This document shows positions 776 through 15,204 of a DNA stretch of 15,204 bases, piece after piece (the stretch's first letter is position 1; each line of letters opens with the position of its first letter). The notes below the pieces were generated by a model. It was not told the origin of the DNA. It saw only the letters and a list, made by a program, of their open reading frames with translations, and did not search any database. Source of the DNA: a virus. Taxonomy: Duplodnaviria; Heunggongvirae; Uroviricota; Caudoviricetes. The stretch covers positions 1 through 15,204 of the IMG/VR virus record IMGVR_UViG_2913177423_000006. The stretch is one strand, 5' to 3'. Both the position numbers and the translations under genes were made by a program.

Positions 776-3586
776 TTATTTTTTTAGAGATTGCATTCGT
801 TCATTGAATATGTCCAATGTGTCTTGAAATTCAACAAAGCCTCTATCCTTTATAAGGATTTTAATTAAGTTAGGAAAATCACTTTCTACACCAGCTGTAA
901 TGAAATCTAACTCGCCTAATTTATTCGGGATGTTTTCAGAAACAAATTTGTTAATAACCTCAAGAAATTGATCAGGCATGGCACATCCGCTTGCGACTAA
1001 ATGCAAACATTCCATAATATCGCTTACTGTTGCCAGTGGTAGGTTTAAAATATTACTGTTAATAAACTTGTCTATAATGTCAACGACCTCAGGAGAGCCA
1101 ATCCTTTTGATGTTCAATAATAAACTCTTAGTGATGGATCTTTTCCACTTATCATCAAATAATTGTATTTTTGTTAACGCTAATGTTAATAGTTCAGTGT
1201 TTTTGTATTCGTAATTATGATTCTCTGATAATATGTAAATGTTTCGTAAGATATTGGAGTTAATTACATGCTGGTCATAACCATTTAACTCTCCTGTATT
1301 GATTTTTATAAGTATTACATCCAGGATTTTTAACATATCATCATGGGATTTTTGATACAAAAACTCATTCACAGCTAGAAGATTATGTATGTTTTCATAA
1401 ATATTTATGTTATTAGTTCTGCCTTCTAACAAAGGAAGCAAACCATTTATTATTTTCTTTAACTGGTTTGAACTCCACGGAACACATCCTAATATAATCA
1501 ATAAATTATTGGTCCATCGATCTATTGAAGTGGTATGAATAAAATTTTTATTTTTCAACCTAATCAGGTTGCATATGTTTTCGAGAGAGTTGAGTAAATA
1601 TTTCTTAATATGGTGAACTTCTCTTTTGTCAAGTTTGCTGGTGCTGATTATTATTTTGTCTTTTATTACCTTACTTAAAAATTTTTTGAGTTTTTCTGTC
1701 TCGCAGTATTTTATTAACATAAATAGATCGATTCTATTAACATAGAATATCTCTTCGCATAGATAGTGTTCGAGGCTACTAAGAATATTAAATTCGAAAA
1801 ATTGTTTAACCTCTTTATATTCTTCAATTAAAATTTCGTTGCCTAAAATGAAATACACATAAGGGTACAGTTTCGCTCTTGTTTTAAATTCATCATTGGA
1901 AAATGCTATTCCACCACTCTTTCTTATTTGTGAGTACCCTAAATTCTTCTTCGATTCAACGTCAAATCGATAGTAAGCTTTGTATATTTCATTAAATTCA
2001 AGCATCTTTACTAATTCTTGTAGCTCACTTTGCACCCCCCGTGGAAAATCAATTATTTTACTTTTAAACTCAAATGGAGTATGGCTTTCCATTATTGATT
2101 TACAATCTTCATCAATGTCCTTACCGTTACAGTGTAAATCCGACTTCAACATCCTGTAAGCATAATCAAAATTAGACATGTGAATGGTGGCGAGAATATA
2201 GTTTCTCTCATTAAGATGAAGCTTTACTTTCGAAATAAGAATATCGAGAAGTTTGCCATATTCCTTGTTAATAAGAAGTATTTCAGCATTATCCTTTGAA
2301 TAAGCGAAAGAAATCTTATTGTATAGCTCAGACTCTAATTCTGAAGAACTAATCACCTCATACAGTTTCGAGTCATAACTAACTGTATTTATAAATGCCT
2401 TTTCCAAAATAGATGAGAATGTCTTTTTTAAGTGAGTATTTTTACTCAAAATGTCATTAAGGTATATGCTATTTATTTTCCTGCTATACTCGTCATAATC
2501 AGTCGTCAAAATATTATTGTGGGAGGTTAGTTTAACCCCAGACTTATCATAATCAATGGTACTATTAGTTAATTTTTTACTGATCTGCTCAGGGAGCAAT
2601 ACTTTGTATTGTGTTAATGCTTTTAGTTTGCTATCAACATATTTATTTATTTTTTTTGTTACAATACATTGAATATCATTCTTCAATTTATTTTTATCAA
2701 AATCAGACATTCTCAGGTCATCTTCTATTTTTTTTACCTTTGACTCAGTATAGATCAGGGTCCTCTTTATAAACTCATCTTGGTTTTTAACAAGCTTGAA
2801 ATCACTGAAAAATTTTGAATAAAGATCATGATAGCTAATGTCAGTATTCATCGGTGTCAACAAGGATATCCCATGATTTCTTAAGTAAAGAGCCTGGGCT
2901 GCATCATGATTTTTCTGGAGCAAATATTTTCTTGGTGTTGCTTTTGATATAGTTGTAACCCATGAAACAATCTGTTTTAAATCATAATCACTATAAGAGT
3001 ATCCTAAAAACACAACAGTGTTTGTTGAGAATATTCCTTTTATAAAATTTTCGATAAGTGGAAAATTTTGGCTGTACTGTAAGTAATCATCCTCTTTAAA
3101 AACAAAATTATTCTGTCGAAAATCCCCATGCATCTTTATAATTTTCTTGTCCAAATGACTTTGTGCCAGGTCCACGTCAGAACTAACTAAATCATAAGCC
3201 AATCCTATGTCTTGTGCAGTTTTTTCAAGCAAACTATCCCAGTTGGTTGTAATTATATAGTGGGGGTTTAATTCAAATAGCATCTTATGAAAAAGACTTG
3301 GTTTCAAATCTCTAATTATTGATTTGACTTTTTTAACATAAGAGTTTTGTCCGTATTGAAGAAAGTAAAGTTGGGCTATTTTTAAATAATCATTTTCTTC
3401 AGACAATCCTAAGTCGTCTTTTAGCTCATTTATTAACTCCCTCCAGGTTGGTATTTTTATTAATTCCGTTTCGCTGAATTTAGAAAAACCAGCACCAATA
3501 AAAAGAACTAACTTATTATCTTGACTGGCATTCAATATTTCGTTCAAGTCATATTCAGAAAAAGAAAGTGGATTTAAATTTATCAT
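776..3586 (-). CDS. SIR2-domain protein, 936 aa: N-terminal SIR2-type NAD+-hydrolase domain plus ~650-aa helical C-terminal region; candidate single-gene antiphage defence protein (DSR1/DSR2-like)
   Basis: Long uninterrupted ORF. N-terminus carries SIR2-type motifs: glycine-rich LVLFIGAGFS (res 26-35), IITTNWDSLLE (Asn115), IIKMHGDF (His153), VVFLGYSYSDYDL. Asn-His spacing of 38 residues. The gene is visibly far more AT-rich than its neighbours (by eye, roughly 25-30% GC against about 50%). No partner gene (TIR, HerA, Argonaute) nearby. Confidence 0.8.
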   Translation of the reverse strand: MINLNPLSFSEYDLNEILNASQDNKLVLFIGAGFSKFSETELIKIPTWRELINELKDDLGLSEENDYLKIAQLYFLQYGQNSYVKKVKSIIRDLKPSLFHKMLFELNPHYIITTNWDSLLEKTAQDIGLAYDLVSSDVDLAQSHLDKKIIKMHGDFRQNNFVFKEDDYLQYSQNFPLIENFIKGIFSTNTVVFLGYSYSDYDLKQIVSWVTTISKATPRKYLLQKNHDAAQALYLRNHGISLLTPMNTDISYHDLYSKFFSDFKLVKNQDEFIKRTLIYTESKVKKIEDDLRMSDFDKNKLKNDIQCIVTKKINKYVDSKLKALTQYKVLLPEQISKKLTNSTIDYDKSGVKLTSHNNILTTDYDEYSRKINSIYLNDILSKNTHLKKTFSSILEKAFINTVSYDSKLYEVISSSELESELYNKISFAYSKDNAEILLINKEYGKLLDILISKVKLHLNERNYILATIHMSNFDYAYRMLKSDLHCNGKDIDEDCKSIMESHTPFEFKSKIIDFPRGVQSELQELVKMLEFNEIYKAYYRFDVESKKNLGYSQIRKSGGIAFSNDEFKTRAKLYPYVYFILGNEILIEEYKEVKQFFEFNILSSLEHYLCEEIFYVNRIDLFMLIKYCETEKLKKFLSKVIKDKIIISTSKLDKREVHHIKKYLLNSLENICNLIRLKNKNFIHTTSIDRWTNNLLIILGCVPWSSNQLKKIINGLLPLLEGRTNNINIYENIHNLLAVNEFLYQKSHDDMLKILDVILIKINTGELNGYDQHVINSNILRNIYILSENHNYEYKNTELLTLALTKIQLFDDKWKRSITKSLLLNIKRIGSPEVVDIIDKFINSNILNLPLATVSDIMECLHLVASGCAMPDQFLEVINKFVSENIPNKLGELDFITAGVESDFPNLIKILIKDRGFVEFQDTLDIFNERMQSLKK

Positions 3587-4072: not shown

Positions 4073-4237
4073 TTTCAACGTCTTTTCCCGTCTATTAAAA
4101 TCCAACAAACCCGCATATACTCTAGCTTTGAGCGCCCCAGATAGTGTTTTAACGTCTATCAATATCTCCTAAAATCCACGTCTTTTGGGGGGATATTCGG
4201 GGGTATATGCTGTGTGGGCTACTGGAGATACCCCCAA

Positions 4238-5428
4238 ATGAAACTAAATGCCCGTCAGGTCGATACGGCCAAACCGAAAGAAAAACCCTATAAACTGGCC
4301 GATGGTGGTGGGCTTTATCTGCTTGTTAATCCCAATGGTTCCCGGTACTGGCGTTTAAAGTACCGGGTAGCCGGAAAAGAAAAGCTGTTGGCGCTGGGGG
4401 TATATCCCGATGTAACCCTGGCTGATGCCAGGGCGAAACGAGATGAGGCCAAAAGGGGTATGGCTGGGGGGATCGACCCGAACGAAGCGAAGCGGGAAGA
4501 AAAATTGAACCGCGAAGCGCAAATCAAAAACACCTTCGAAGAAATCGCCAGAGAGTGGCATACAGAACGGCAGAAGAAATGGTCTGAGGGGTACGCCTCG
4601 GACATTCTGGAAGCATTCAGTAAAGACATATTCCCTTGGATTGGAAAACGCCCCATCACGGAAATAAAGCCCCTTGATTTGCTGAATACGCTTAAACGCA
4701 TCGAGAATAGGGGAGCGACTGAAAAGGCCCGTAAGGTTCGCCAGTGGTGCGGGGAGGTCTGGAAGTATGCGATCGTTACCGCCCGCGCAGAATATAACCC
4801 CGCCCCTGATCTATCTGTGGCTATGGAAGGACACGAAGGGGAGCACTTCCCCCATCTGGAAGCCGAAGAGTTACCCGAATTTTTCCAGACGCTGGCGACG
4901 GCAAAAAGTAACGTTCAGGTTATTTTGGGGCTGCGTCTGCTTATTCTTGTGGGGTTACGTCCGGTTGAATTACGCGCGGCCCCGTGGTCAGAGATTGATT
5001 TTGATAATGCCTTGTGGGAGATCCCCAAAGAGCGAATGAAGAAAAGACGTCCGCACGTTGTCCCGCTTTCTCGCCAGGCTATGGTTATTCTCGGGCAATT
5101 AAAAGAGTTGTCGGGCCGCAATCCTTTCATTTTTCCGGGCCGGAACGACCCGCGAAAGCCAATGAGTGAAGGAGCAATTAATCAGCTAATAAAGCGACTC
5201 GGGTATAAGGGCAAAGCTTGCGGGCATGGTTTCCGACATACCATGAGCACAATTTTGTATGAGAAAGGGTATAACACCGAATGGATCGAAACCCAGCTTG
5301 CACATGTTGATAAAAATACCATCCGTGGCACATATAATCATGCCCGCTATCTGGATGGACGCCGGGAAATGCTTCAATGGTATGCCGACTATATGGAATC
5401 GCTGGCGAGTGGCAGGGTAAAAGATTAG
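4238..5428 (+). CDS. int: Tyrosine integrase, P4/CP4-57 IntA type (396 aa)
   Basis: N-terminus MKLNARQVDTAKPKEKPYKLADGGGLYLLVNPNGSRYWRLKYR is the classic P4-type integrase arm-binding start; C-terminal catalytic region has HGFRHT and a conserved Tyr in RGTYNHARY. GGAGA Shine-Dalgarno 10 nt upstream of the ATG at 4238; the ORF-track start at 4214 is a GTG extension. Sits immediately downstream of the tRNA fragment. Confidence 0.9.
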   Translation: MKLNARQVDTAKPKEKPYKLADGGGLYLLVNPNGSRYWRLKYRVAGKEKLLALGVYPDVTLADARAKRDEAKRGMAGGIDPNEAKREEKLNREAQIKNTFEEIAREWHTERQKKWSEGYASDILEAFSKDIFPWIGKRPITEIKPLDLLNTLKRIENRGATEKARKVRQWCGEVWKYAIVTARAEYNPAPDLSVAMEGHEGEHFPHLEAEELPEFFQTLATAKSNVQVILGLRLLILVGLRPVELRAAPWSEIDFDNALWEIPKERMKKRRPHVVPLSRQAMVILGQLKELSGRNPFIFPGRNDPRKPMSEGAINQLIKRLGYKGKACGHGFRHTMSTILYEKGYNTEWIETQLAHVDKNTIRGTYNHARYLDGRREMLQWYADYMESLASGRVKD

Positions 5429-5505: not shown

Positions 5506-5998
5506 ATCATTTTCAATGAATTATGATTTTGGAAATTTTATAAAAAACACCAAGATTACTAATCTATTGATTAATATGAAATATTTCTTTTTTTGATTAT
5601 TAATTGTGCTCTTGATTGTTGTTTTTATGGTGTTAATTTATAAAAATCTTATTTATAGGAATTAACATTATATAGTTGGCACTTTTTGCTAAAATCTGTT
5701 TTTATTGTGTTTTATTTTTATTTCATTTTTGTTGTTGTTTGTTTGATTTTTAGTGTCTTTATATCTGGCTAATTGATTTCACTCAAACCATAAATCCTTT
5801 CAGAGGCTTCTAGAGTCTTCCTGAGGCTTAAATTGACTTAACTAAAAGTCAAGCCCCACATCCCACATACATCTTTTTGACATGCACTTATGGCGTGAAT
5901 AACAATGACTTCATCCAATCTACAGGCATCCTATAAAGTCAATGTCTGTATATAGAAAGATATTACATAACGTTTGAATGTTAATAGCGGGTGTGAAT

Positions 5999-6217
5999 AT
6001 GAGAAATGATGCAATGCAGCTTTTAAACCAAGGAAAAAGATTGATCCGCCTGCCTGAAGTTATGATGCTTACGGGGCGGTGTCGCGCCAGTATTTATAAA
6101 GATATCAATGCAAATGTCTTTCCAAAGCCGATTAAAACCGGCCCGCGTTCTGTCGCATGGGTTGAGGGTGAGATCAGCGACTGGATCGACAACAAAATCA
6201 AAGAGCGCAAAGTGTAA
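5999..6217 (+). CDS. alpA: AlpA/Vis-family phage transcriptional regulator (excision activator-like), ~72 aa
   Basis: RLIRLPEVMMLTGRCRASIYKDINANVFPKPIKTGPRSVAWVEGEISDWI matches the AlpA-family pattern (RLP.V...TG..R.TIY.....FP.P...G.R.V.W...E...W), in the usual position after a P4-type int. Start chosen at the ATG at 5999 (MRNDAMQ...); the ORF-track start at 5978 lacks an SD. Confidence 0.75.
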   Translation: MRNDAMQLLNQGKRLIRLPEVMMLTGRCRASIYKDINANVFPKPIKTGPRSVAWVEGEISDWIDNKIKERKV

Positions 6218-6416: not shown

Positions 6417-7289
6417 ATGAACATTACTGATATTATCAGCCATCGCGTATATCGTGATGCGGATCTTGCTGTCATTAATAACACGGCATTTATTCAGCCT
6501 TATGACGGTTGTCACCGTGGTTTGTATGAAATGCGCGTTATTGAACTTTATCGCCTGAATAAAATGATGCACCTTACCCACGAATATAAATCTATTTCCG
6601 GGGAAAGCGTAGGCATTCCGGCGACTAAAGAGGAACTGTTTACACTGGTTAATAAAGGGCATGAACTTTGCCAGTCTGAACGGGAAAAGCTGGCGGCACT
6701 TGAAGCAGAATTGCAGCGTCTGCCAAGCCCGGCTGTAATTCCTGCGCCGCAGACGATTAAAGAAGCACAGCAGGCCCGTAAATCACTAGAAGATGAAAGA
6801 TTCAGACTGCATCACGCAGCAATTAAAAATCAAGTCAAGGCACAGCAGGAAGAGTTATCCATCAGACAAAACATTCTGGCATTGCTCGCGCCGGTTATTG
6901 ATGTGTTGTTGGCCGTGGAAGATGTGGAACTGCTCGATCTGCGCCGTTCCCTGCCTAAGTCATCCCTCGATGCTAAGGCATTCAAAAAGGCGATTTCTGA
7001 AATTGAGTGTGCTGACCTTGCCTGGCAGAAAATGGATAAACTGGAGATTGCCCTTAACAAGGTGGTGAACAACTGCACATATCGCCCGGAAGGAAGCATT
7101 AATCCCCGTTTTGTTAACCCTCTTAATGAAGATAAGCGGGAACGCGCCGAAATATCACGCGATTATTACAGCTCTGAAATGGCCTTTATTCATACGGTGA
7201 TGAGTGCAGATGAATATTTAAATTATATGTTGCCGATCCGTCACCAGCAGCGCGCGCAACGACTCACATTAGAAAGAAATATCAACTAA
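6417..7289 (+). CDS. Hypothetical 290-aa protein with a central coiled-coil-like region; possible scaffold-like partner of the downstream capsid-family gene
   Basis: Clean ORF whose stop lies 10 bp before the next gene, which has an AAGGAAG SD. Middle segment (ELCQSEREKLAALEAELQRL ... QVKAQQEELSIRQNILALL) is heptad-like. No family recognised by eye; functional call is inference from adjacency and size only. Confidence 0.6.
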   Translation: MNITDIISHRVYRDADLAVINNTAFIQPYDGCHRGLYEMRVIELYRLNKMMHLTHEYKSISGESVGIPATKEELFTLVNKGHELCQSEREKLAALEAELQRLPSPAVIPAPQTIKEAQQARKSLEDERFRLHHAAIKNQVKAQQEELSIRQNILALLAPVIDVLLAVEDVELLDLRRSLPKSSLDAKAFKKAISEIECADLAWQKMDKLEIALNKVVNNCTYRPEGSINPRFVNPLNEDKRERAEISRDYYSSEMAFIHTVMSADEYLNYMLPIRHQQRAQRLTLERNIN

Positions 7290-7298
7290 GGAAGAATT

Positions 7299-8306
7299 AT
7301 GTCTTATGTAACACCAGATTATTTAACGCAGTATCACGAAAACCTGATTAAGTCTTTTAATATTAAATATAAAAACGAAGATACGGGGTATTTCACCATA
7401 TCACAGCCGGAAAAAGCATCTCCGGATGCATGGGGATGTTCCACGCTTGATGTTAAAGGCTCGTCCTGGCTGATTGATAATATTTCATTACTGGACATTA
7501 CCGGTGCGGATGGCACGACGATCACCATCGGTGATGGTTCCCTTTATACAGGCCGTGCAAAGGAAGGTCGCTTTCATAAGAAACTAAAAACCAACGGAAC
7601 ACCTTTTTTATTATCAGAAACGGATTCCTGCGCCTCATTGACTTATGAAGAAATGGCGGTAATGGCAAACGCGAAAAATTTCAGTAATGAAATGATCATT
7701 TTTTTCAAGAAGGCCGTGGTGCGGGATATGCTCCGTATTGGATTTAACGGCAAGATGATTGCCGAAAATACCAACCCGGAACAATATAAAAACGGCGAAG
7801 ATATCAATATTGGCTGGCACTCGCTGGCAAAAACATTCAATAACGGTTCACAAATTATTTCTGATGCTTTCGCACTGGGGAAAGGGGGTGATTTTGCCGA
7901 TGTTCACGATCTGGCTGATTGCCTCATCACGTCAAAAATCCCCGAAGGTCAGCGCGAAGATCCGGGCCTTGTGGTGATGGTTGGCGCGCAGCTTGCCGCC
8001 CGCGAACGCCTGAAACTGTTCAACATGGCCGATCAACCACTGACGCTGACGGCGGGGGATATGTTGACAAGCAGTGTCGCCGGTCGTTTTGCCTTTATCC
8101 CGCCGTTTATGCCGGGTAAGCGCCTGGCTGTTACGACGCTGAAAAATTTGCAGATCCTGACGCTGAAACACAGCCAACACTACCGCGCGGAGGATATCCC
8201 GCAACGAGGTGTTTATGAGCATGGCTATTTACGTGAAGAAGGTTACGCGCTGGGGGATGGCTATCTTTACGCGGCCAGCGATGAGAACGCCGTGACGCTG
8301 GTTTAA
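7299..8306 (+). CDS. P2 GpN-like major capsid-family protein homologue (335 aa)
   Basis: Colinear motif matches to my recollection of P2 GpN: RIGFNG vs AGFNG; NIGWHSL vs AVGWLQK; LGKGGDFADVHDLAD vs VGKGGDYASLDALVMD; EDPGLVVMVGAQLAA vs EDPDLVVIVGRQLLA; TTLKNLQI vs ITKLENLSI. AAGGAAG SD 5 nt upstream. Recalled-sequence comparison, not a search, so moderate confidence. Confidence 0.55.
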   Translation: MSYVTPDYLTQYHENLIKSFNIKYKNEDTGYFTISQPEKASPDAWGCSTLDVKGSSWLIDNISLLDITGADGTTITIGDGSLYTGRAKEGRFHKKLKTNGTPFLLSETDSCASLTYEEMAVMANAKNFSNEMIIFFKKAVVRDMLRIGFNGKMIAENTNPEQYKNGEDINIGWHSLAKTFNNGSQIISDAFALGKGGDFADVHDLADCLITSKIPEGQREDPGLVVMVGAQLAARERLKLFNMADQPLTLTAGDMLTSSVAGRFAFIPPFMPGKRLAVTTLKNLQILTLKHSQHYRAEDIPQRGVYEHGYLREEGYALGDGYLYAASDENAVTLV

Positions 8307-8477
8307 AACCTGCTGCAGTACAGCCAGCTTTGACAGTGTTGACCAGATAAAAGAAAACCCCCTCACCGGAACGAACAAGAAACGATGAGAGGGTTTATCA
8401 GGAAGATGATTCTACGCGATGAATTATACCGGGATACAACCGATGCTTACCAGCATAACCACACGACGTAAAAGGGG

Positions 8478-8663
8478 TTATTCCTTTATCGTGTCCAGTT
8501 TCTTACGGCGTTGGCGGCGCTTTATCTCACCCTTTGCCGCAGTTACTAAGAAACCGGCTGTACTTTCTCCAGTTTCCTTTAACTGTTCTATATCCTCCAT
8601 AACCTCATGGGGGATTCTGACGGTGGTCATTTGCGATTTTGCATTCTTCGCACCTGTTGCCAT
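8478..8663 (-). CDS. Ribbon-helix-helix (CopG/Arc-like) DNA-binding protein, 61 aa
   Basis: Minus-strand translation MATGAKNAKSQMTTVRIPHEVMEDIEQLKETGESTAGFLVTAAKGEIKRRQRRKKLDTIKE has the RHH beta-strand/helix pattern (TTVRIP.E....IE.L). GGAGA SD 6 nt upstream of the ATG at 8663. Divergent from the small-gene operon. Confidence 0.5.
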   Translation of the reverse strand: MATGAKNAKSQMTTVRIPHEVMEDIEQLKETGESTAGFLVTAAKGEIKRRQRRKKLDTIKE

Positions 8664-8787
8664 TACTGTTCTCCACTCGAATAGGTGTATTTCAGTATAC
8701 GCAACTAAAAAACAGAAAAAAAGACTTGAAGTGTATTTCACCATACGTGTAGGATTGATTTGCAAGGTGACATACACCTGTAAAGTA

Positions 8788-8820
8788 AAGCCCGGCAGTG
8801 TGGGGACACTAACCGGGCTT
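8788..8820 (+). promoter_or_regulatory. Strong nested hairpin/palindrome in the divergent control region upstream of the small-gene operon
   Basis: Outer stem aagcccgg (8788-8795) / ccgggctt (8813-8820), inner stem agtgt/acact with gggg loop. No U-tract follows, so it is more likely an operator or structured leader than a terminator. Confidence 0.35.
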
Positions 8821-8849
8821 CTGACCAACACGTTAACAGGACTAACGCT

Positions 8850-9053
8850 ATGGCTAAGCCGAAGTGTAACCAAACTCACCCTAAAAATCGCGTATTTCTC
8901 TTTCTTGCGGTATCAAGGGCTGACATGCAGGACAAACCACACCGCGAACAAATCACCGCGTACAGCGAACAGGAAGCCCGTTCCATGCTGGCCGGTCGCT
9001 TTATCCTCTGCTTTGCTGGCTGTCTGCCGGTTCAGGAGGCGCGCCATGTTTAA
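8850..9053 (+). CDS. Possible small leader ORF (67 aa, or 42 aa from ATG at 8925); stop overlaps next gene's start (ATGTTTAA)
   Basis: Open frame whose TAA (9051-9053) overlaps the ATG at 9046. No recognisable domain; C-terminal hydrophobic stretch RFILCFAGCLPV. May be non-coding leader. Confidence 0.3.
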   Translation: MAKPKCNQTHPKNRVFLFLAVSRADMQDKPHREQITAYSEQEARSMLAGRFILCFAGCLPVQEARHV

Positions 9054-9294
9054 CCCACTGGACAACCGTAAAGCGGCGGCGCTTAACCCGTTCCACGATG
9101 ACTGTTACGATCCGCCAGCCTTTATTAAACCGGGTTCAAAAGTAGTGGTTGAAATTGATTCCCGTGAAATGGAAGTCGCTATTCTAGCCGCTTATGACTA
9201 CGGACTGGACGCGCTGAACGACGATGGCCGGGAAGAGCTTAACCGCTTAATTGCTGACCTGAAAGACCAGATAACGGAGGCGCGGTATGCATAA
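9046..9294 (+). CDS. Hypothetical small protein (82 aa), first gene of the translationally coupled operon
   Basis: AGGAGG SD 6 nt upstream of the ATG at 9046. Stop overlaps the next start (ATGCATAA at 9287-9294). The ORF-track start at 8419 is a stop-free upstream extension. Confidence 0.65.
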   Translation: MFNPLDNRKAAALNPFHDDCYDPPAFIKPGSKVVVEIDSREMEVAILAAYDYGLDALNDDGREELNRLIADLKDQITEARYA

Positions 9295-9712
9295 TCTGCT
9301 TAATTCACCGTTGCCAGTGTCTATGGATCTCTTTCAGGCTGGCGAGATGTGCGGGCATTTTGTCGCGCGGTTAACGGATGAAAGTTGTGTTGACGAGACT
9401 GAACGCGTCGCACTTTGCGGACGTCTGGCTTTTGCCCTGCGTTCTCTTTCATCTCTTTGTGATACAGACTATCCATCGCATATCCAGGCGCAATTAACCG
9501 CGACTGCTATTCCTGCTCCCTGCGTACCTGATGAGTGGATCGACGCGACGATCATGACGGGCTATTGCACCGCCTTAAATGATGCGCTGCTTAGTCGCTC
9601 CCTTCGTATGGACGTTGAAACACAATTACGCTGGCTTTTGCATGACATGATTAATTTACTTGTCAGATATCTGAAACAGCCTTGTATTAAGGCGGGAGTA
9701 GATCATGTCTGA
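9287..9712 (+). CDS. Hypothetical Cys-rich protein (141 aa)
   Basis: Start overlaps the previous stop and its own stop overlaps the next start (ATGTCTGA at 9705-9712). No family recognised. Confidence 0.6.
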   Translation: MHNLLNSPLPVSMDLFQAGEMCGHFVARLTDESCVDETERVALCGRLAFALRSLSSLCDTDYPSHIQAQLTATAIPAPCVPDEWIDATIMTGYCTALNDALLSRSLRMDVETQLRWLLHDMINLLVRYLKQPCIKAGVDHV

Positions 9713-10112
9713 AATTATGCTCACACCGTTTCACGTTGACCGCCATTTTTACGATCTGGTTTACGGTGCTTCATTTTTTGCGGATGCATTACCTGCAATG
9801 AATGATATCAAGCAGCAGCGGCTTTATTGTCGATTATTGCAATTAAATCTGGTTGTTTTATTTGAAAAACGGTCGCGGGATATTCCCCCAATTCAGTCGA
9901 GTAAAATAAAAATCGCTGATGAGGTTATATTTCTTAATGTCGATAATATTTATCATGCGCTTTCCCTGACTGCCGGGCTGATAAGTCAGGATATCAGTAA
10001 GGGGATTGAAAAAGAACTGGCTGAATATATCAGGGATATTATTAGTATTATTTTTAATGAAATGCGAATGCAGATGGTTGATTATGATCCCTATGAAATG
10101 TGGGACGACTAA
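9705..10112 (+). CDS. Hypothetical protein (135 aa), acidic C-terminus
   Basis: Translationally coupled to the upstream gene; no family recognised. Confidence 0.6.
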   Translation: MSEIMLTPFHVDRHFYDLVYGASFFADALPAMNDIKQQRLYCRLLQLNLVVLFEKRSRDIPPIQSSKIKIADEVIFLNVDNIYHALSLTAGLISQDISKGIEKELAEYIRDIISIIFNEMRMQMVDYDPYEMWDD

Positions 10113-10199: not shown

Positions 10200-10469
10200 A
10201 TGTCTGATTTGAATACCATTGCTGTTAATAGTGCTGAAAAATATCTTAGCCTTGAGTGCTTCCATAAACTCAACCGCGCAAGGAATGTTTCATTCCAGAT
10301 GCATTTACAGATCCGTCAGTGTGAGATAAACGGCCTGCCACTTTTATGGATTCCAGATATTTTCAGCTATATCAGCGAAGACATATCCGCCGTTCTGGAA
10401 GAAGCCAAAGTACTTGGCCTTTGCGATAAGTTCACAGGCGAAGCCCGGATCGGTCAGGTCAGTCTTTAA
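10200..10469 (+). CDS. Hypothetical protein (89 aa) upstream of the primase
   Basis: ORF with a GGAAAA region before the ATG; followed by a T-run and GC-rich palindrome gcgccgc-ccgct-gcggcgc (10483-10501) before the primase start. Confidence 0.5.
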   Translation: MSDLNTIAVNSAEKYLSLECFHKLNRARNVSFQMHLQIRQCEINGLPLLWIPDIFSYISEDISAVLEEAKVLGLCDKFTGEARIGQVSL

Positions 10470-10532
10470 TTTTTTGTATTCCGCGCCGCCCGCTGCGGCG
10501 CATTGTCTTACCCATTAATAAAGGTCATACCG

Positions 10533-13265
10533 ATGCAAGGTAAAAAAGTTTCACAGACAGCAGGACGCGCAGCGGGCCAGTGGGAAAATATTCTTGAACA
10601 CCTGGGGATTACTGTTCCTGCGGGTGGTCTTCATGGCCCCTGCCCGATCTGCGGCGGTAAAGATCGTTTTCGCTTTGATAATAAAAAAGGGCGTGGAACC
10701 TGGTTCTGCAACCAGTGCGGCCACGGTGACGGGCTGGATCTGGTCAAACTGGCGCTTTCGCTGGACACCGGGCCAGCCGCTGATCGAGTTGCTGAATTAC
10801 TTCCGGCCCTTCCTCCGCCTGCGGTCATGCAGCCTGCCAGAAAAGAAGCCAGTGACGAAGGTCGCCCACATGACTACTGGCAACGCCTCTTTGCCCGTAC
10901 TCAGCCGGGGGAAAGCCCTTACCTTACGGCGCGGGGGCTGACAGGTTTTGAACTGCCGCTGACCGTTCAGGAGATGAAAACCGCTGGCGGTGTTTTTCCG
11001 GCTGGTTCGCTTTTATTACCGATCACGGACACCGAAGGACGGATGACCGGTGCACAGCTTATCGGCCCGGACAAGGTAAAAGGCTTATGTGCTGGCACCA
11101 GGAAAAAAGGGCGTTTTATCTCTGTCGGGCCGTTCCCGGTGAAAACGCCCGCGCGGATCATTATCTCGGAAGGCTTTGCCACTGCGTTAAGCGCATCCCT
11201 GCTTTCAGAGGGCTGGAGTATTGCGGCGCTGGATAAAGGCAACCTGAAAGACGTTGCGGAGCAAATCCGCCAGAAATGGCCGGACGTGCAGATCGTTATT
11301 GCCGGTGATAATGACTTTTCTGACGGTAAACCCAATCAGGGGAAAGAGTCTGCGATCAAAGCTGCACTGGCCGTTAAGGGATGGATGACCATTCCTCCCG
11401 GACGGATCAAAGTTGACTGGGATGATTACCGCCGTGAATTTGGCCTCCAGCGCGCCCGTGACGCATTCGCGGAAGAACTGCTTAACCCGGCAGACACCGA
11501 AACGCGTTTACCGCATGGTTTCCGCCTGACGAAGGATTATCTTTGGTTTGATCGCCCGCTCAGTGACGGTAGCGAAAGCGGCCAGACTCGCCAGGTGAAG
11601 ATATGTAGCCCGCTCAAAGTGACGGCCATCACCAGCGACGGCGAAGGCGGTAAATTCGGGCGTCTGCTTGAGTGGGAAGACTCCAGCGGATTACGGCATG
11701 AATGGGCGATGCCAATGACAGTGCTTGCCGGAAGCGGTCAGGAGCTGCGGGAGGTTCTGCTTGATAACGGAATGCACTTTATCAGCGTGAACGGCGCGGC
11801 GCGTAGCTATCTGATGGAATACATTTCTAACTGTCGCCCGGTTCGCCGCGTCACCTGCGTTGAAAAAACAGGCTGGTTTAGCGGTGCATATGTTCTCCAG
11901 GATGAGGTGATCGGCAGCGATGCCGGATCGGTGATCCTTCAGTCTGCTATGTCGTCTAAAAATGACTTCCGGGTGAGCGGAACGGCGGCGGAATGGGCGC
12001 AACACGTCGGGCGCTATTGCGCCGGTAATTCCCGCCTGGTGTTCTGCGTCAGTCTGGCGCTGGCCGCGCCGTTGCTGAATCTTATCGGCGTGGGCGGCGG
12101 CGGTTATCACCTTAAGGGCGAATCCACGGACGGCAAGACAACCACAATGAAGGTGGCGGCGTCAGTCTGCGGCGGGCCTGATTTCTGGAAAACGTGGCGG
12201 GCAACCGGAAACGCGCTGGAAGGTATTGCGCTACGCCGTAATGATGCCGCCCTGATGCTGGATGAAATCAGCGAAGTTGACGGCAGAGAGGCCAGCCGGA
12301 TCGCCTATATGCTGGGGAACGGGCAGGGCAAAGCAAGGGGGCGCGTTGATGGCAGCGTCCGCGATCCGGTGACCTGGACATTGCTTTACCTGTCCACCGG
12401 GGAAATCTCTATTGCGGAACATGCCGCCGAAGCCGGAGAAAAGCGAACCGGCGCGGGTGTCGGTGTGCGTATGGTGCAAATACTCAGCGATACCGGAAAA
12501 CATGGCGCTTTCGAAAATCTCCACGGCATGGAAGGCGGTAAAGCGTTTGCGGAATACCTTGAACAGTCCTGTAAACAGTATCACGGTGCGCCGTTCCGCG
12601 AATGGTTGCGCTGGCTGGCGGCAAACCTGACGGAAACTGCGAACCGGGCGCGGGCAATGAAAAAAGAGTATGAACGGACATTATTACCCGAAGATTCCGG
12701 CAAGCAGGTCGGGCGCATTGTGGATCGCTTTGCGCTGTTAGCCGTTGCGGGGGAACTGGCAAGCGAAGCGGGGATCACCGGCTGGCTACCCGGTGAAGCG
12801 TATAACGCTGCAAGAAGCTGTCTGGCGGCATGGCTTAACGATCGCGGACATGCGGCCAACCAGGAAGAAGCCGACGCGCTGGAGAAGGTGCGGCGCTTTA
12901 TTACGGCGAATCAGTACACACGCTTTGCTGACTGGTATGACGAGAAAAACCGCCCGTCAAATATGGTTGGTTTTCGCCGGGTGGAGAAAGGCGGGAACGG
13001 TATCGGCATGAGCAAGAAGGAGAACAGCGGCGATACTGTTAAAGACGGGGACGCCACTAAAGAGCCGGAAACCACATTTTATATCCTGCCCAGCGGATGG
13101 AAGGAGATTTGCGGGACGTCGGACAGCGTTAAAACGGCGAGACTATGCGACGAGGCTGGATGGCTTGTAAAGGATGAAGATCGCCAGCGCCTACAACGTA
13201 CAGTAAGACTACCGGAAATTGGCTTAAAGAAAGTGTATGTGTTCAGCGGCGAAGTGATCGGATAA
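10533..13265 (+). CDS. P4 alpha-type DNA primase/helicase (zinc-binding domain, Toprim primase, P-loop NTPase)
   Basis: Zinc ribbon CPICGGKDRFRFDNKKGRGTWFCNQCGHGDGLD; Toprim motifs IIISEGFATA and VIAGDNDF; Walker A GESTDGKTT and Walker B LMLDEI. Start set at ATG 10533 (MQGKK...); the ORF-track start at 10503 is a TTG. Confidence 0.9.
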   Translation: MQGKKVSQTAGRAAGQWENILEHLGITVPAGGLHGPCPICGGKDRFRFDNKKGRGTWFCNQCGHGDGLDLVKLALSLDTGPAADRVAELLPALPPPAVMQPARKEASDEGRPHDYWQRLFARTQPGESPYLTARGLTGFELPLTVQEMKTAGGVFPAGSLLLPITDTEGRMTGAQLIGPDKVKGLCAGTRKKGRFISVGPFPVKTPARIIISEGFATALSASLLSEGWSIAALDKGNLKDVAEQIRQKWPDVQIVIAGDNDFSDGKPNQGKESAIKAALAVKGWMTIPPGRIKVDWDDYRREFGLQRARDAFAEELLNPADTETRLPHGFRLTKDYLWFDRPLSDGSESGQTRQVKICSPLKVTAITSDGEGGKFGRLLEWEDSSGLRHEWAMPMTVLAGSGQELREVLLDNGMHFISVNGAARSYLMEYISNCRPVRRVTCVEKTGWFSGAYVLQDEVIGSDAGSVILQSAMSSKNDFRVSGTAAEWAQHVGRYCAGNSRLVFCVSLALAAPLLNLIGVGGGGYHLKGESTDGKTTTMKVAASVCGGPDFWKTWRATGNALEGIALRRNDAALMLDEISEVDGREASRIAYMLGNGQGKARGRVDGSVRDPVTWTLLYLSTGEISIAEHAAEAGEKRTGAGVGVRMVQILSDTGKHGAFENLHGMEGGKAFAEYLEQSCKQYHGAPFREWLRWLAANLTETANRARAMKKEYERTLLPEDSGKQVGRIVDRFALLAVAGELASEAGITGWLPGEAYNAARSCLAAWLNDRGHAANQEEADALEKVRRFITANQYTRFADWYDEKNRPSNMVGFRRVEKGGNGIGMSKKENSGDTVKDGDATKEPETTFYILPSGWKEICGTSDSVKTARLCDEAGWLVKDEDRQRLQRTVRLPEIGLKKVYVFSGEVIG

Positions 13266-13362
13266 GACCTGCTGACACCGCTATAACTAACGGTGTTGGC
13301 CAGCTTCCGGTCCTGGAAACATAGCCAGCCAGGAAGAAGTGATCGCACGTATCATATTTTTT

Positions 13363-13575
13363 AGTGGGAACAGTGGGAACATAGGGAACAGACTTGATTT
13401 ATAAAAGTTTTATTTGTTCCCAATTACTGTTCCCATATGGTAACAGGTGGTAATGTATTTTAAATCATATGGTTATGTTGATATGCAAAGCGTTGTTCCC
13501 AGTTGTAAAAGAGAGATGGGAACAGGAAAAAGGTATAAATATCAACACTGTTACCATTGTTCCCACTGTTTCCAC
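13363..13575. repeat. Iteron-like array: about 10 copies of octamer TGGGAACA / TGTTCCCA in both orientations; candidate ori/crr-type primase-binding region or integrase arm-type sites
   Basis: Read directly: direct copies at 13366, 13375, 13384 (9-bp period); inverted copies tgttccca at 13415, 13428, 13494; tgggaaca at 13517; tgttacca / tgttccca / tgtttcca at 13549, 13558, 13567 (9-bp period). Confidence 0.7.
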
Positions 13576-13649
13576 CATTTTTGACAATAACAATGTTTAA
13601 TTTCGGGGAAAATGCTTTTCCCTGGCTGGCTAACATCAAAGGTGAAGAA

Positions 13650-14198
13650 ATGAGCATCAAGAAACGTCCTGATGGAAAATGGCTGGTAGATATCCGCCCC
13701 AATGGGCGGAACGGGAAACGCGTTAGGCGTGTTTTTATGCTTAAGCGTGAGGCTGAAAGTTTCATAAGATATACAAAGTGGCGAGCAATGCAGTCTGAAC
13801 CCACAAGAACAATCAAACCAGCATTTGAATATTATACCCTTTATGAAGCGTGTGAAATCTGGTGGCGTTTAGTGGGTCATACAAGAATTAACGCAGAAAC
13901 TGAAAAGCGTCAGCTTGAAAAGACTATCAGGCAAATGGGGAATCCTTATGTTATGGAACTTAAATATACACAATTAATTCAATTTGTAATGTTACGATTA
14001 TATTCATGCAATAAATATGTTTCTATTCGGCGTGATCTTTACAGGCTGTCAGGTATGTTTCGTGATCTGATAAAAATAGGTGAATATAATTCTAACCCCA
14101 TGAAAGGGGTTGGTTCATTAATGAACGAATGTAACCGACGTTTAGCCATACACGTTAGCAATCCTTGCTGGGTTCAATGGTGGAGAGGGGTAAAATAA
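13650..14198 (+). pseudogene. Tyrosine-integrase N-terminal fragment (arm-binding plus core-binding region, 182 aa), lacking the catalytic domain; probable integrase remnant or stand-alone DNA-binding protein
   Basis: MSIKKRPDGKWLVDIRPNGRNGKRVRRVFMLKREAESFIRYTKW is the typical P2-type integrase arm-binding N-terminus. The ORF stops after ~180 aa with no R..HxxR..Y catalytic region. AGGTG SD before the ATG at 13650. Confidence 0.5.
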
Positions 14199-14217
14199 AT
14201 GGGAGTAATAAGTGATA

Positions 14218-14475
14218 TCAGTTTTGAAGCAATTCTTTTATCATTGTTTTTTGTTCCGGCGTCATCATGTCAATCATTGTTTTTACTGCTTTCTCCCCAG
14301 TCAGCGCGCTGGGGCTTAGCGTATGGGAGAACGTCATATTCATAACGAAGGTATGCCCACATTCAACATTATTACAGGCACAATACATATCAGACAGGTG
14401 TGGATGCTTGCGTACTGTCTTTTTTGTTGTTGAATTACTTCCACACTCAGGACAAACAATTTTATGGCTGCGCAT
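14218..14475 (-). CDS. Ogr/Delta-family zinc-finger transcriptional activator (85 aa)
   Basis: MRSHKIVCPECGSNS...YCACNNVECGHTF gives Cys spacing C-x2-C-x20-C-x-C-x4-C with the NV.C motif of P2 Ogr / P4 Delta. GGTGA SD 5 nt upstream of the ATG at 14475; the ORF-track start at 14529 is probably an upstream extension. Confidence 0.7.
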   Translation of the reverse strand: MRSHKIVCPECGSNSTTKKTVRKHPHLSDMYCACNNVECGHTFVMNMTFSHTLSPSALTGEKAVKTMIDMMTPEQKTMIKELLQN

Positions 14476-14895
14476 AATAATCACCACTCGTAAAAGGCGC
14501 ATTATTATACCACTATTTGCATTAAACAAAAAAAGAAGTTGATATAAATTATCAATAATATCATCGTATTATGTTATTCCATTCTTTCCTTGCTTTTATC
14601 TTAGTGTCACGTAATTTGATTTTTTTTTATTTTAATTTTCATGTGGTTACGTTATTTTTGTTAAAGATTGAATTTTACGAAGACTGAAATTACTGAAATC
14701 CTTTGCAATTGATTGCATTTTTTTCAGTCTCAAATTTCATGTAAAACCCCGTTTAACGCCTGTTCTGGCGGTTCTTTCCTGCAATTTTCCAAACTGAAAA
14801 AATTCTCACTACGTAAACACCGTGGGCGTGCGGGTGAGCGCGGTTTTGGTCCCGCTGGCGTTTGCGTCGTAACAAGTCAGAAACATACAACCACA

Positions 14896-14914
14896 TGTAC
14901 AACTAGCTGTACAT
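14896..14914 (+). promoter_or_regulatory. Putative yefM-type operator: two TGTACA hexamers 13 bp apart, ~45 bp upstream of the antitoxin start
   Basis: catGTACAActagcTGTACAtatg read directly. The E. coli yefM-yoeB operator is known to be built from TGTACA-core palindromes. Confidence 0.5.
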
Positions 14915-14958
14915 ATGCAATACTTACGACGTAATAACTTGGCGGACGGAAAAACACT

Positions 14959-15204
14959 ATGCAACACGTAAACTATACCGATGCTCGACAGCATTTAGCT
15001 GACCTGATGCAGCAGGCTAATGATGATCGTGCCCCAATCCTGGTTACGCGTAAGGGTGCTAAAAGCGTAGTAATGATCGATGCGGAAGAGTTCGCATCGA
15101 TTCAGGAAACGTTACACCTGTTCAGTAACCCGGCGAACGCCGCACACATTGAAGCCAGCCTTGCATCGCTCGAACGCGGCGATTATGAGGAACTGGACAT
15201 TTAA
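14959..15204 (+). CDS. yefM: YefM/Phd-family type II antitoxin (81 aa)
   Basis: MQHVNYTDARQHLADLMQQANDDRAPILVTRKGAKSVVMIDAEEFASIQETLHLFSNPANAAHIEASL aligns with E. coli YefM as I recall it. Stop codon is the last triplet of the window, so the cognate toxin would lie beyond the window end. Confidence 0.85.
   Translation: MQHVNYTDARQHLADLMQQANDDRAPILVTRKGAKSVVMIDAEEFASIQETLHLFSNPANAAHIEASLASLERGDYEELDI

Follow-up and report, generated by a model that had tools for sequence, protein, structure and literature searches.

Why would a satellite that integrates by a P4-type integrase also carry the front half of a P2-type integrase? The question is raised by a 15,204-nt stretch of viral DNA (IMG/VR record IMGVR_UViG_2913177423_000006, Caudoviricetes), the whole of which is called the window below. 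It holds a P4-like satellite, identified by a P4-type int, AlpA, epsilon, the alpha primase, and delta, and between alpha and delta lies the gene for a protein that we call IntN (13650-14198). A preliminary description of the window had taken this gene for the N-terminal part of a P2-type integrase, and had proposed either the scar of a P2-like element or of an old recombination event, or a truncated protein surviving as a DNA-binding factor on the neighboring octamer array. From the comparison of sequences, we conclude that IntN is probably not a dead leftover but a working DNA-binding protein. That the short protein is functional in the broad sense appears likely; the fuller description, in which IntN derives from a P2-type (Peduovirus) integrase, has been retained without catalytic function, and is made up of an arm-binding domain, a core-binding domain, and a short tail, we hold with about even confidence.

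The open reading frame (ORF) of IntN runs from an ATG at 13650 to a stop codon at 14196-14198 and encodes 182 amino acids. A Shine-Dalgarno sequence with a good match (AAGGTG, 13641-13646) lies 6 nt 5' of the start codon, in the context AAAGGTGAAGAA-ATG. The identity of the product was determined by profile, sequence, and structure comparisons. Pfam assigned one domain only, PF24624 (Int_N; residues 63-157, E = 3e-16, 60.3 bits against a cutoff of 27), and gave no match in IntN to the catalytic domain PF00589. A tblastn search against 50,697 phage records showed 40-44% identity to P2-family integrases, those of SEN4/5, phiT5282H, P2, Wphi, and fiAA91-ss, over residues 1-157 and never beyond, and a profile of the short family matched the P2 integrase crystal structure 5c6k (E = 7e-12). 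In the AlphaFold model of IntN (mean predicted local distance difference test score, 78), a sheet with a helix (residues 1-46; strands 2-5, 11-15, and 25-29, helix 32-46) is joined by a flexible linker to a bundle of four helices (64-142), which is followed by a tail helix. Among PDB entries, the model was matched best by full-length lambda Int chains, aligned over ~158 columns that cover the arm-binding and core-binding domains. In the arm-binding domain, IntN reads MSIKKRPDGKWLVDIRPNGRNGKRVRR where the P2-like integrases read MTIKKLDDGRYEVDIRPNGRNGKRIRR, and 23 of the first 27 residues are invariant across eight short alleles. The core-binding domain is the part that varies most among alleles, with the motifs CEIWW, EKRxxEKTxRQM, and DxYRLSGMF kept.

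IntN thus belongs to the Int_N family and has the arm-binding domain of heterobivalent integrases; it does not qualify as a tyrosine recombinase, since the catalytic domain that defines these enzymes was absent when tested. The profile searches, which could have placed the whole protein in a non-integrase family, returned the integrase match instead. The preliminary description was also correct in assigning IntN and the P4-type int to different families. The search that it had called for, for residual catalytic sequence in other reading frames, was negative: tblastn with four related P2-type catalytic domains found no remnant in any frame of the window, the best match (E = 0.06) lying far outside the region.

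Alignment to P2-family integrases located the truncation point. All short alleles lose their homology to full-length integrases at one place, just after NPxKxxGxL at residue ~158, and continue into a tail of ~25 amino acids that differs among three allele groups and is conserved within allele subgroups. The part beyond NPxKxxGxL showed no significant similarity to the Int linker or the Int C-terminus when hidden Markov model (HMM) scores were compared with those of shuffled tails. For derivation of the tail from the extreme C-terminus of Int, by an internal deletion, or from the inter-domain linker, the scores were only marginal. A perfect 12-bp palindrome, TTCATTAATGAA, lies at 14114-14125, within a 20-bp near-palindrome and exactly at the end of the integrase homology (codons ~155-159).

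IntN belongs to a small family. A search of 5.8 billion proteins returned eight short relatives of 173-201 amino acids, all with the Int_N domain only and diverging down to ~43% identity. The forms of 195-201 amino acids differ only in that their start was called at an ATG further upstream; the intact ORFs are otherwise 173-187 amino acids long. All short homologues whose position could be established occupy one slot in one family of satellites, in Salmonella enterica, Escherichia marmotae, or E. coli, with identical synteny of alpha, iterons, IntN convergent with delta, and Phd/YoeB. IntN is a standing gene of this small P4-like lineage, whose common content is the P4-type int, AlpA, a P2-type capsid homologue, epsilon, alpha, iterons, the IntN/delta pair, and Phd/YoeB. 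When 1.84 billion cluster representatives were searched exhaustively with an HMM, only two family clusters at 50% identity emerged (P0002, 9e-91; P0007, 1e-84), after which the matches fell to E ~1e-32 to 1e-30 and were fragments or ordinary full-length P2-type integrases. No full-length member of the short clade and no second conserved short Int_N family were apparent among the matches of that search, in which other short Int_N proteins resembled contig-end fragments or frameshifted genes. Among GTDB species representatives, neither a protein-pattern scan nor a leader-DNA scan detected a copy; a scan of metagenomes yielded nothing beyond a single identical copy and a distantly related phage int, and IMG/VR gave only ordinary P2-like phage integrases with 25-34% identity.

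The eight short alleles formed one clade with 100% bootstrap support in a neighbor-joining tree of residues 31-158. Its sister group (72%) comprised integrases of P2-like prophages inserted next to cpxP in Klebsiella and Citrobacter. Over the same residues, identity between the two main short subclades is no more than 42-45%. In the simplest history, the catalytic domain was lost once, and the gene was then long retained and diversified deeply. Selection was assessed as the ratio of nonsynonymous to synonymous divergence (dN/dS), calculated by the Nei-Gojobori method with bootstrap 95% confidence intervals (CIs). Among the short alleles, dN/dS was 0.28-0.52 with CIs below 1, and the fraction of bootstraps with a ratio (omega) of 1 or more was at most 0.006 over codons 1-158. 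Three pairs have the tail and stop codon in common and must therefore have diverged after the truncation: the window and L003 (dN/dS 0.40, 95% CI 0.24-0.70), L006 and L044 (0.28, 0.16-0.49), and L037 and L040 (0.36, 0.17-0.72). The ratio also stayed below 1 when the conserved first 27 codons were left out. The alignment of short alleles contains 61 invariant columns, including the three motifs named above. These values, obtained from eight intact alleles, do not correspond to a pseudogene; they show a short gene that has diverged into deep allele groups under purifying selection.

The diversity is organized in a particular way. In two related loci, L001 and L044, the 3' part of alpha, the region of the iterons, the leader, and delta match the window at 98-100% identity, whereas identity falls to 25-65% from ~codon 17 to the delta stop codon. 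Other loci show the same pattern of high flanks and low body in different combinations. Since the flanks are near-identical and the gene body is not, the comparison shows that the IntN locus behaves as an allelic cassette, exchanged by recombination in the conserved flanks, which are the leader with the first codons on one side and the delta 3' end on the other. Derivation of the window gene from the L001 gene by a 427-bp deletion was rejected: homology stops at ~codon 17 and resumes at the delta end, so the two are different alleles.

A few satellites, in two E. coli genomes and in Salmonella loci such as L050, carry a full-length P2-type integrase in the same slot (15351-16316 in L001, from E. 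coli PapRG-04-4, and 7907-8872 in L050; P0157 and P0158). This protein has 321 amino acids with an intact active-site set (TGAR...HVLRHTFASH...MIYAH) and is apparently active. It is 72-74% identical to P2-like prophage integrases located beside cpxP (L051 and L052). Because it nests among these and not with the short clade, the full-length allele is, judged by its position in the tree, a separate and more recent acquisition from helper-type phages and not the ancestor of the short clade. The same degree of identity shows that the locus exchanges with helper-type phages, and the L001 copy is chimeric, its first ~14 codons being of the short type. The full-length allele has no attP; the phage int homology ends 70-90 nt before the end of the phage gene, where the phages carry TGTCCAC arm repeats.

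The relation to phages extends to the convergent neighbor. As the preliminary description had stated, IntN converges with an Ogr/Delta gene (PF04606) at a distance of 19 bp, and in P2 int and ogr converge across attP. In Wphi and SEN5, the order is the C repressor, int, a gap of ~275 bp containing attP, and ogr on the opposite strand, and related phages have TGTCCAC repeats directly after int, which the satellites lack. No terminator-like hairpin was predicted in the 19-bp spacer, and an attP would not fit there. The P2-type arm consensus is tgTGGaCa (PMC3448106), and sites resembling TGTGGACA occurred seven times in the window against 8.8 expected, showing no enrichment. The satellite slot is therefore not a phage attachment module of int plus attP; the IntN/delta pair keeps the gene order of the phages but has neither a catalytic domain nor an attP. 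The longest ORF of delta reaches 14529 (14218-14529), the shorter form listed in Table 1 being the one annotated in near-identical RefSeq copies, and homology to L001, in what is the 3' flank of the cassette, resumes at 14224.

The octamers between alpha and IntN follow a different gene. Exact copies of GGGAACA number eight against 1.8 expected, all within 13366-13565. Across nine loci (the window, L001, L003, L006, L037, L040, L042, L044, and L050), the repeat positions are kept and the octamer sequence changes: GGGAACA occurs in the window, L001, L037, and L044; GGTAACA with GGGATCA in L003, L040, and L050; GGTAACA in L006; and GGCGACA in L042. These four types (array and alpha 3' end, 13109-13575 in the window) match, one to one, four variants of the last ~45 residues of alpha, such as ...GWLVKDEDRQRL...IGLKK... 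and ...GWIKTDEDKRRL...IGAKK.... Each octamer type occurs with different IntN allele groups, full-length ones included. In P4, alpha binds type I iterons, TGTTCACC, by its C-terminal domain. Because the octamer type co-varies with the alpha C-terminus and not with the IntN allele, and because the arm-binding N-terminus barely varies, the octamers are, on this covariation, origin iterons matched to alpha, as in P4, and not sites for IntN. The matched types constitute a natural set of initiator/iteron pairs. The array is bracketed by a perfect 11-nt inverted repeat, AGCCAGCCAGG, with 287 nt spacing, which is kept in eight loci even where the iterons differ; its right arm is degenerate in L050, which has a phage-type int 5' end.

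What, then, would IntN bind? Since the satellite is without a P2-type attP or arm sites and the IntN allele is uncoupled from alpha, the iterons, and delta, its partner is probably outside the element. We propose that IntN would bind DNA in the fashion of an integrase, being unable to cut it, and that its targets would be the P2-type attachment sites of the helper, that is, the arm sites (TGTGGACA) and the core. Bound there, it may compete with or poison the helper integrase and modulate excision or integration, most likely by blocking. The variable core-binding domain could set which helper attachment type is targeted. In P2-like phages, this domain is the variable, specificity-determining part of the integrase, and the arm sites are conserved (PMC3448106); the variable part of the IntN alleles is likewise the core-binding domain. 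The helper would be left as a source of late proteins, and its progeny would be reduced. This specific mechanism is offered as a tentative hypothesis, in which our confidence is rather low. One form of it, which we consider doubtful, makes IntN an integrase decoy on the arm and core sites of helper attL/attR (or attP), such that a derepressed helper could not excise or could not re-lysogenize and would do no more for the satellite than manufacture late proteins. In that case, an arms race with the attachment-site types of helpers would have left its mark in the hypervariable core-binding domain, and the rare full-length alleles may represent the opposite strategy, providing an active helper-type integrase in trans.

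Several observations weigh against IntN as a retained DNA-binding protein that acts on a helper. The expression of IntN, its DNA binding, and any effect on a helper are putative, and no sigma-70-like promoter was predicted 5' of the gene on the + strand. The arm-site specificity is uncertain: Y, D, and R are the discriminators of the P2 type (sites tgTGGaCa) and W, E, and Y those of the 186 type (PMC3448106), and IntN has a mixture of the two (W11, D14, and R16). The dN/dS values of 0.3-0.5 indicate only moderate constraint, and dS in the deep pairs is near saturation. The lineage is rare: the window allele was found in 2 of 5426 complete E. coli genomes, where near-identical satellite copies adjoin tRNA-Thr/proA, and no GTDB species representative carries it. 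Over residues 31-158, even the nearest full-length integrases reach only 38-45% identity, so that none of the alleles can be paired with a particular helper integrase or attachment site; at the DNA level, no helper integrase matching the window allele was found in the E. coli genomes.

Alternatively, IntN might regulate the satellite itself, as a transcription factor on the delta or late promoter, possibly together with helper Cox, or convergent transcription might dampen delta. Delta is tightly convergent across 19 bp without a predicted terminator, the invariant arm-binding N-terminus would fit a constant internal target, and the conserved AGCCAGCCAGG repeat flanks the origin with its right arm just 5' of IntN. 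It is also known that P2 Int binds cooperatively with Cox and that Cox activates P4 PLL (PMC3936717). However, which IntN allele a satellite carries is independent of its delta and alpha variants, and P2-type arm sites are not enriched in the window. A constant internal target leaves the hypervariable core-binding domain unexplained, and a role at the RNA level or by interference leaves the selection on amino acids unexplained. Regulation of the satellite by IntN thus appears unlikely.

The scar reading of the preliminary description, if taken to mean that an old recombination with a helper left behind a P2-like integrase that now decays without function, is right as to the P2-like origin of the gene and improbable as to its decay. 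The catalytic domain and attP are missing, the region is AT-rich (35-43% GC against 52-62% in alpha), RefSeq annotates the product as a hypothetical protein in one genome, and databases contain many fragments of P2-type int that are truncated or frameshifted. Against this stand eight diverged alleles with dS up to ~1 or more, all intact and of similar length, with the start codon and ribosome-binding site kept; a dN/dS significantly below 1 even in the post-truncation pairs; invariant columns that include the structural motifs of the core-binding domain; and a short clade that is monophyletic and old. The retention of at least eight diverged alleles in the same slot is the part of the preliminary DNA-binding proposal that these comparisons support; its choice of the octamer array as the target is not supported.

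A further possibility is that IntN is defense or counter-defense cargo, for example a decoy that blocks lysogenization by incoming non-helper P2-like phages, or a partner of the P4-type int or a factor for it that resembles a recombination directionality factor. Conflict loci typically show such a turnover of alleles, like that of a cassette, between conserved flanks, and the locus adjoins a toxin-antitoxin module and a slot that varies in relatives. Yet PADLOC defense models gave no family for IntN at E <= 0.001, and the known P4 defense hotspot lies elsewhere, between int and psu (PMC13586616). The fold matches of IntN were integrase N-terminal halves only, with no match to the winged helix of Xis or Cox, and P4-type and P2-type integrases use different arm-binding domains. 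We regard such a role as quite improbable. Least probable is control of replication by IntN bound to the octamer array, for although the array lies directly upstream (13314-13575) and GTGGGAACA loosely resembles the P2 arm consensus TGTGGACA (six of eight positions), the octamers are equally like the P4 alpha iteron TGTTCACC, their types track the alpha C-terminus with several IntN groups per type, and the arm-binding N-terminus hardly changes.

The features of the satellite are collected in Table 1. Among the ORFs at 6417-10112, no match to psu or sid was found with Pfam or PHROG, a result from family profiles only, with no structure-based remote-homology check. The capsid homologue, which is of full length, is preceded by the 290-amino-acid ORF in the position of a scaffold gene, and both are kept in all related loci; this looks like a P4-like lineage that brings its own capsid protein and is under-described. 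No P2 cos-like sequence was found in the window, and tRNA and Rfam scans of the window gave no matches.

Table 1. Features of the satellite and of the IntN locus (positions in the window).
Feature	Position	Strand	Basis or remark
P4-type integrase (Arm-DNA-bind_3, Phage_int_M, Phage_integrase)	4214-5428		Pfam
AlpA (Phage_AlpA)	5978-6217		Pfam
ORF of 290 amino acids, no family match	6417-7289		
P2-family major capsid homologue	7299-8306		PF05125 (1e-54), phrog_70 (3e-72)
Several small ORFs	8419-10112		
Epsilon-type derepression protein (Derepression)	10200-10469		Pfam
Alpha-type primase/helicase, 920 amino acids (Zn_Ribbon_Prim/Toprim_3/DUF927)	10503-13265		Pfam
GGGAACA/TGTTCCC octamer array, eight exact copies and degenerate ones, between alpha and IntN	13314-13575	.	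Repeat count
Inverted repeat AGCCAGCCAGG, left arm, 11 nt	13323-13333	+	Brackets iteron array
Leader with ribosome-binding site, 5' homology flank of cassette (with first ~17-27 codons)	13584-13649	+	90-100% identity across loci, gene body 25-65%
Inverted repeat AGCCAGCCAGG, right arm, 11 nt	13621-13631	-	18 nt 5' of IntN start codon
IntN, P2-type integrase derivative of 182 amino acids, arm-binding and core-binding domains only	13650-14198	+	ORF, PF24624, tblastn, 5c6k, AlphaFold model; stop codon included
Arm-binding domain, residues 1-46, three strands and a helix	13650-13787	+	AlphaFold secondary structure, alignment
Core-binding four-helix domain, residues 64-142	13839-14075	+	AlphaFold model, alignment, sliding identity
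C-terminal tail, ~25 amino acids, beyond end of integrase homology (~residue 158)	14121-14195	+	tblastn end at 157, HMM against shuffles
Spacer of 19 bp between the convergent IntN and delta stop codons	14199-14217	.	Sequence
Ogr/Delta zinc-finger late activator, single domain, 85 amino acids	14218-14475	-	PF04606 (6e-15), phrog_603 (2e-31), annotation of RefSeq relatives (L001/L002)
Phd/YefM antitoxin	14959 onward		

At its right end, the satellite carries a Phd/YefM-YoeB toxin-antitoxin pair (14959-15204). The intergenic region between delta and phd (14530-14958) is AT-rich (29-34% GC) and gave no phage match; it contains several direct and inverted repeats, among them a 31-nt repeat at 14614 and 14712 and ACTGAAAT, present twice, together with a GC-rich island at 14810-14870. 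Some relatives (L040-L043) have an extra ORF of 181-184 amino acids and of no known family between delta and phd, so that this place may be a small slot for variable cargo. The DNA on the left side of the satellite encodes a Pin-type serine invertase/resolvase (1-555) and a 936-amino-acid SIR2_2 protein (776-3586, - strand) with a ThsA-like N-terminus (PADLOC ThsA, 4e-29), which may be a defense gene of a neighboring element.

The closest counterparts of IntN are the integrases of P2-like phages (P2 Int 5c6k, Wphi, SEN4/5, and the cpxP prophages of Klebsiella and Citrobacter). They have homologous arm-binding and core-binding domains (PF24624, 38-45% identity) and the motifs EKRQLxKTIRQM and RDxYRLSGMF in common with it, and both kinds of gene converge on a member of the ogr family. 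IntN, in contrast, lacks the catalytic domain (~160 amino acids, R-K-H-R-H-Y) and an attP after the gene, has 182 amino acids where phage Int has 320-340, and resides in a satellite that integrates by a P4-type integrase. The full-length slot integrase of L001 and L050 is also P2-type, occupies the same position between iterons and delta with the same flanks, and likewise has no downstream attP; it differs from IntN in its length, its intact catalytic motifs, and its nesting with phage integrases.

An integrase fragment acting in trans has a precedent in principle. Sarkar, Radman-Livaja and Landy are said to have described in 2001 the isolated N-terminal domain of lambda Int in vitro as a 'context-sensitive modulator'. 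That domain reportedly binds arm DNA and alters the full-length recombinase; unlike IntN, it is a laboratory-made construct of ~64 residues without a core-binding domain and is not naturally maintained. P2 Cox and lambda Xis are small non-catalytic proteins that bind attachment-site DNA and decide between integration and excision. They resemble the proposed IntN in role only, having an unrelated winged-helix fold, whereas IntN is the DNA-binding half of the integrase itself. P4 and P4-like satellites have the P4-type int, AlpA, an epsilon-like protein, alpha with iterons, and Ogr/Delta in common with this element. The element differs from P4 in lacking a psu or sid detectable with Pfam or PHROG and in having a P2-family capsid homologue, and P4 itself is without an additional integrase gene of the P2 type.

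The known targets of hijacking by satellites are the gene expression, the capsid size, and the packaging of the helper. In the literature searched on P4-like satellites and P2-like integrases, we found no description of a second, P2-type or truncated integrase in a satellite, nor of satellite control of helper site-specific recombination by a domesticated, catalytically dead helper-type integrase. The locus marks an under-described P4-like satellite lineage with its own P2-type capsid gene. Whatever the mechanism, it is a clear example of a gene that lost a domain, was retained over a long time, and is exchanged as a cassette of alleles. If IntN does act on helper attachment sites, it would represent a new layer of satellite-helper conflict and a natural case of a recombinase turned into a pure DNA-binding regulator.

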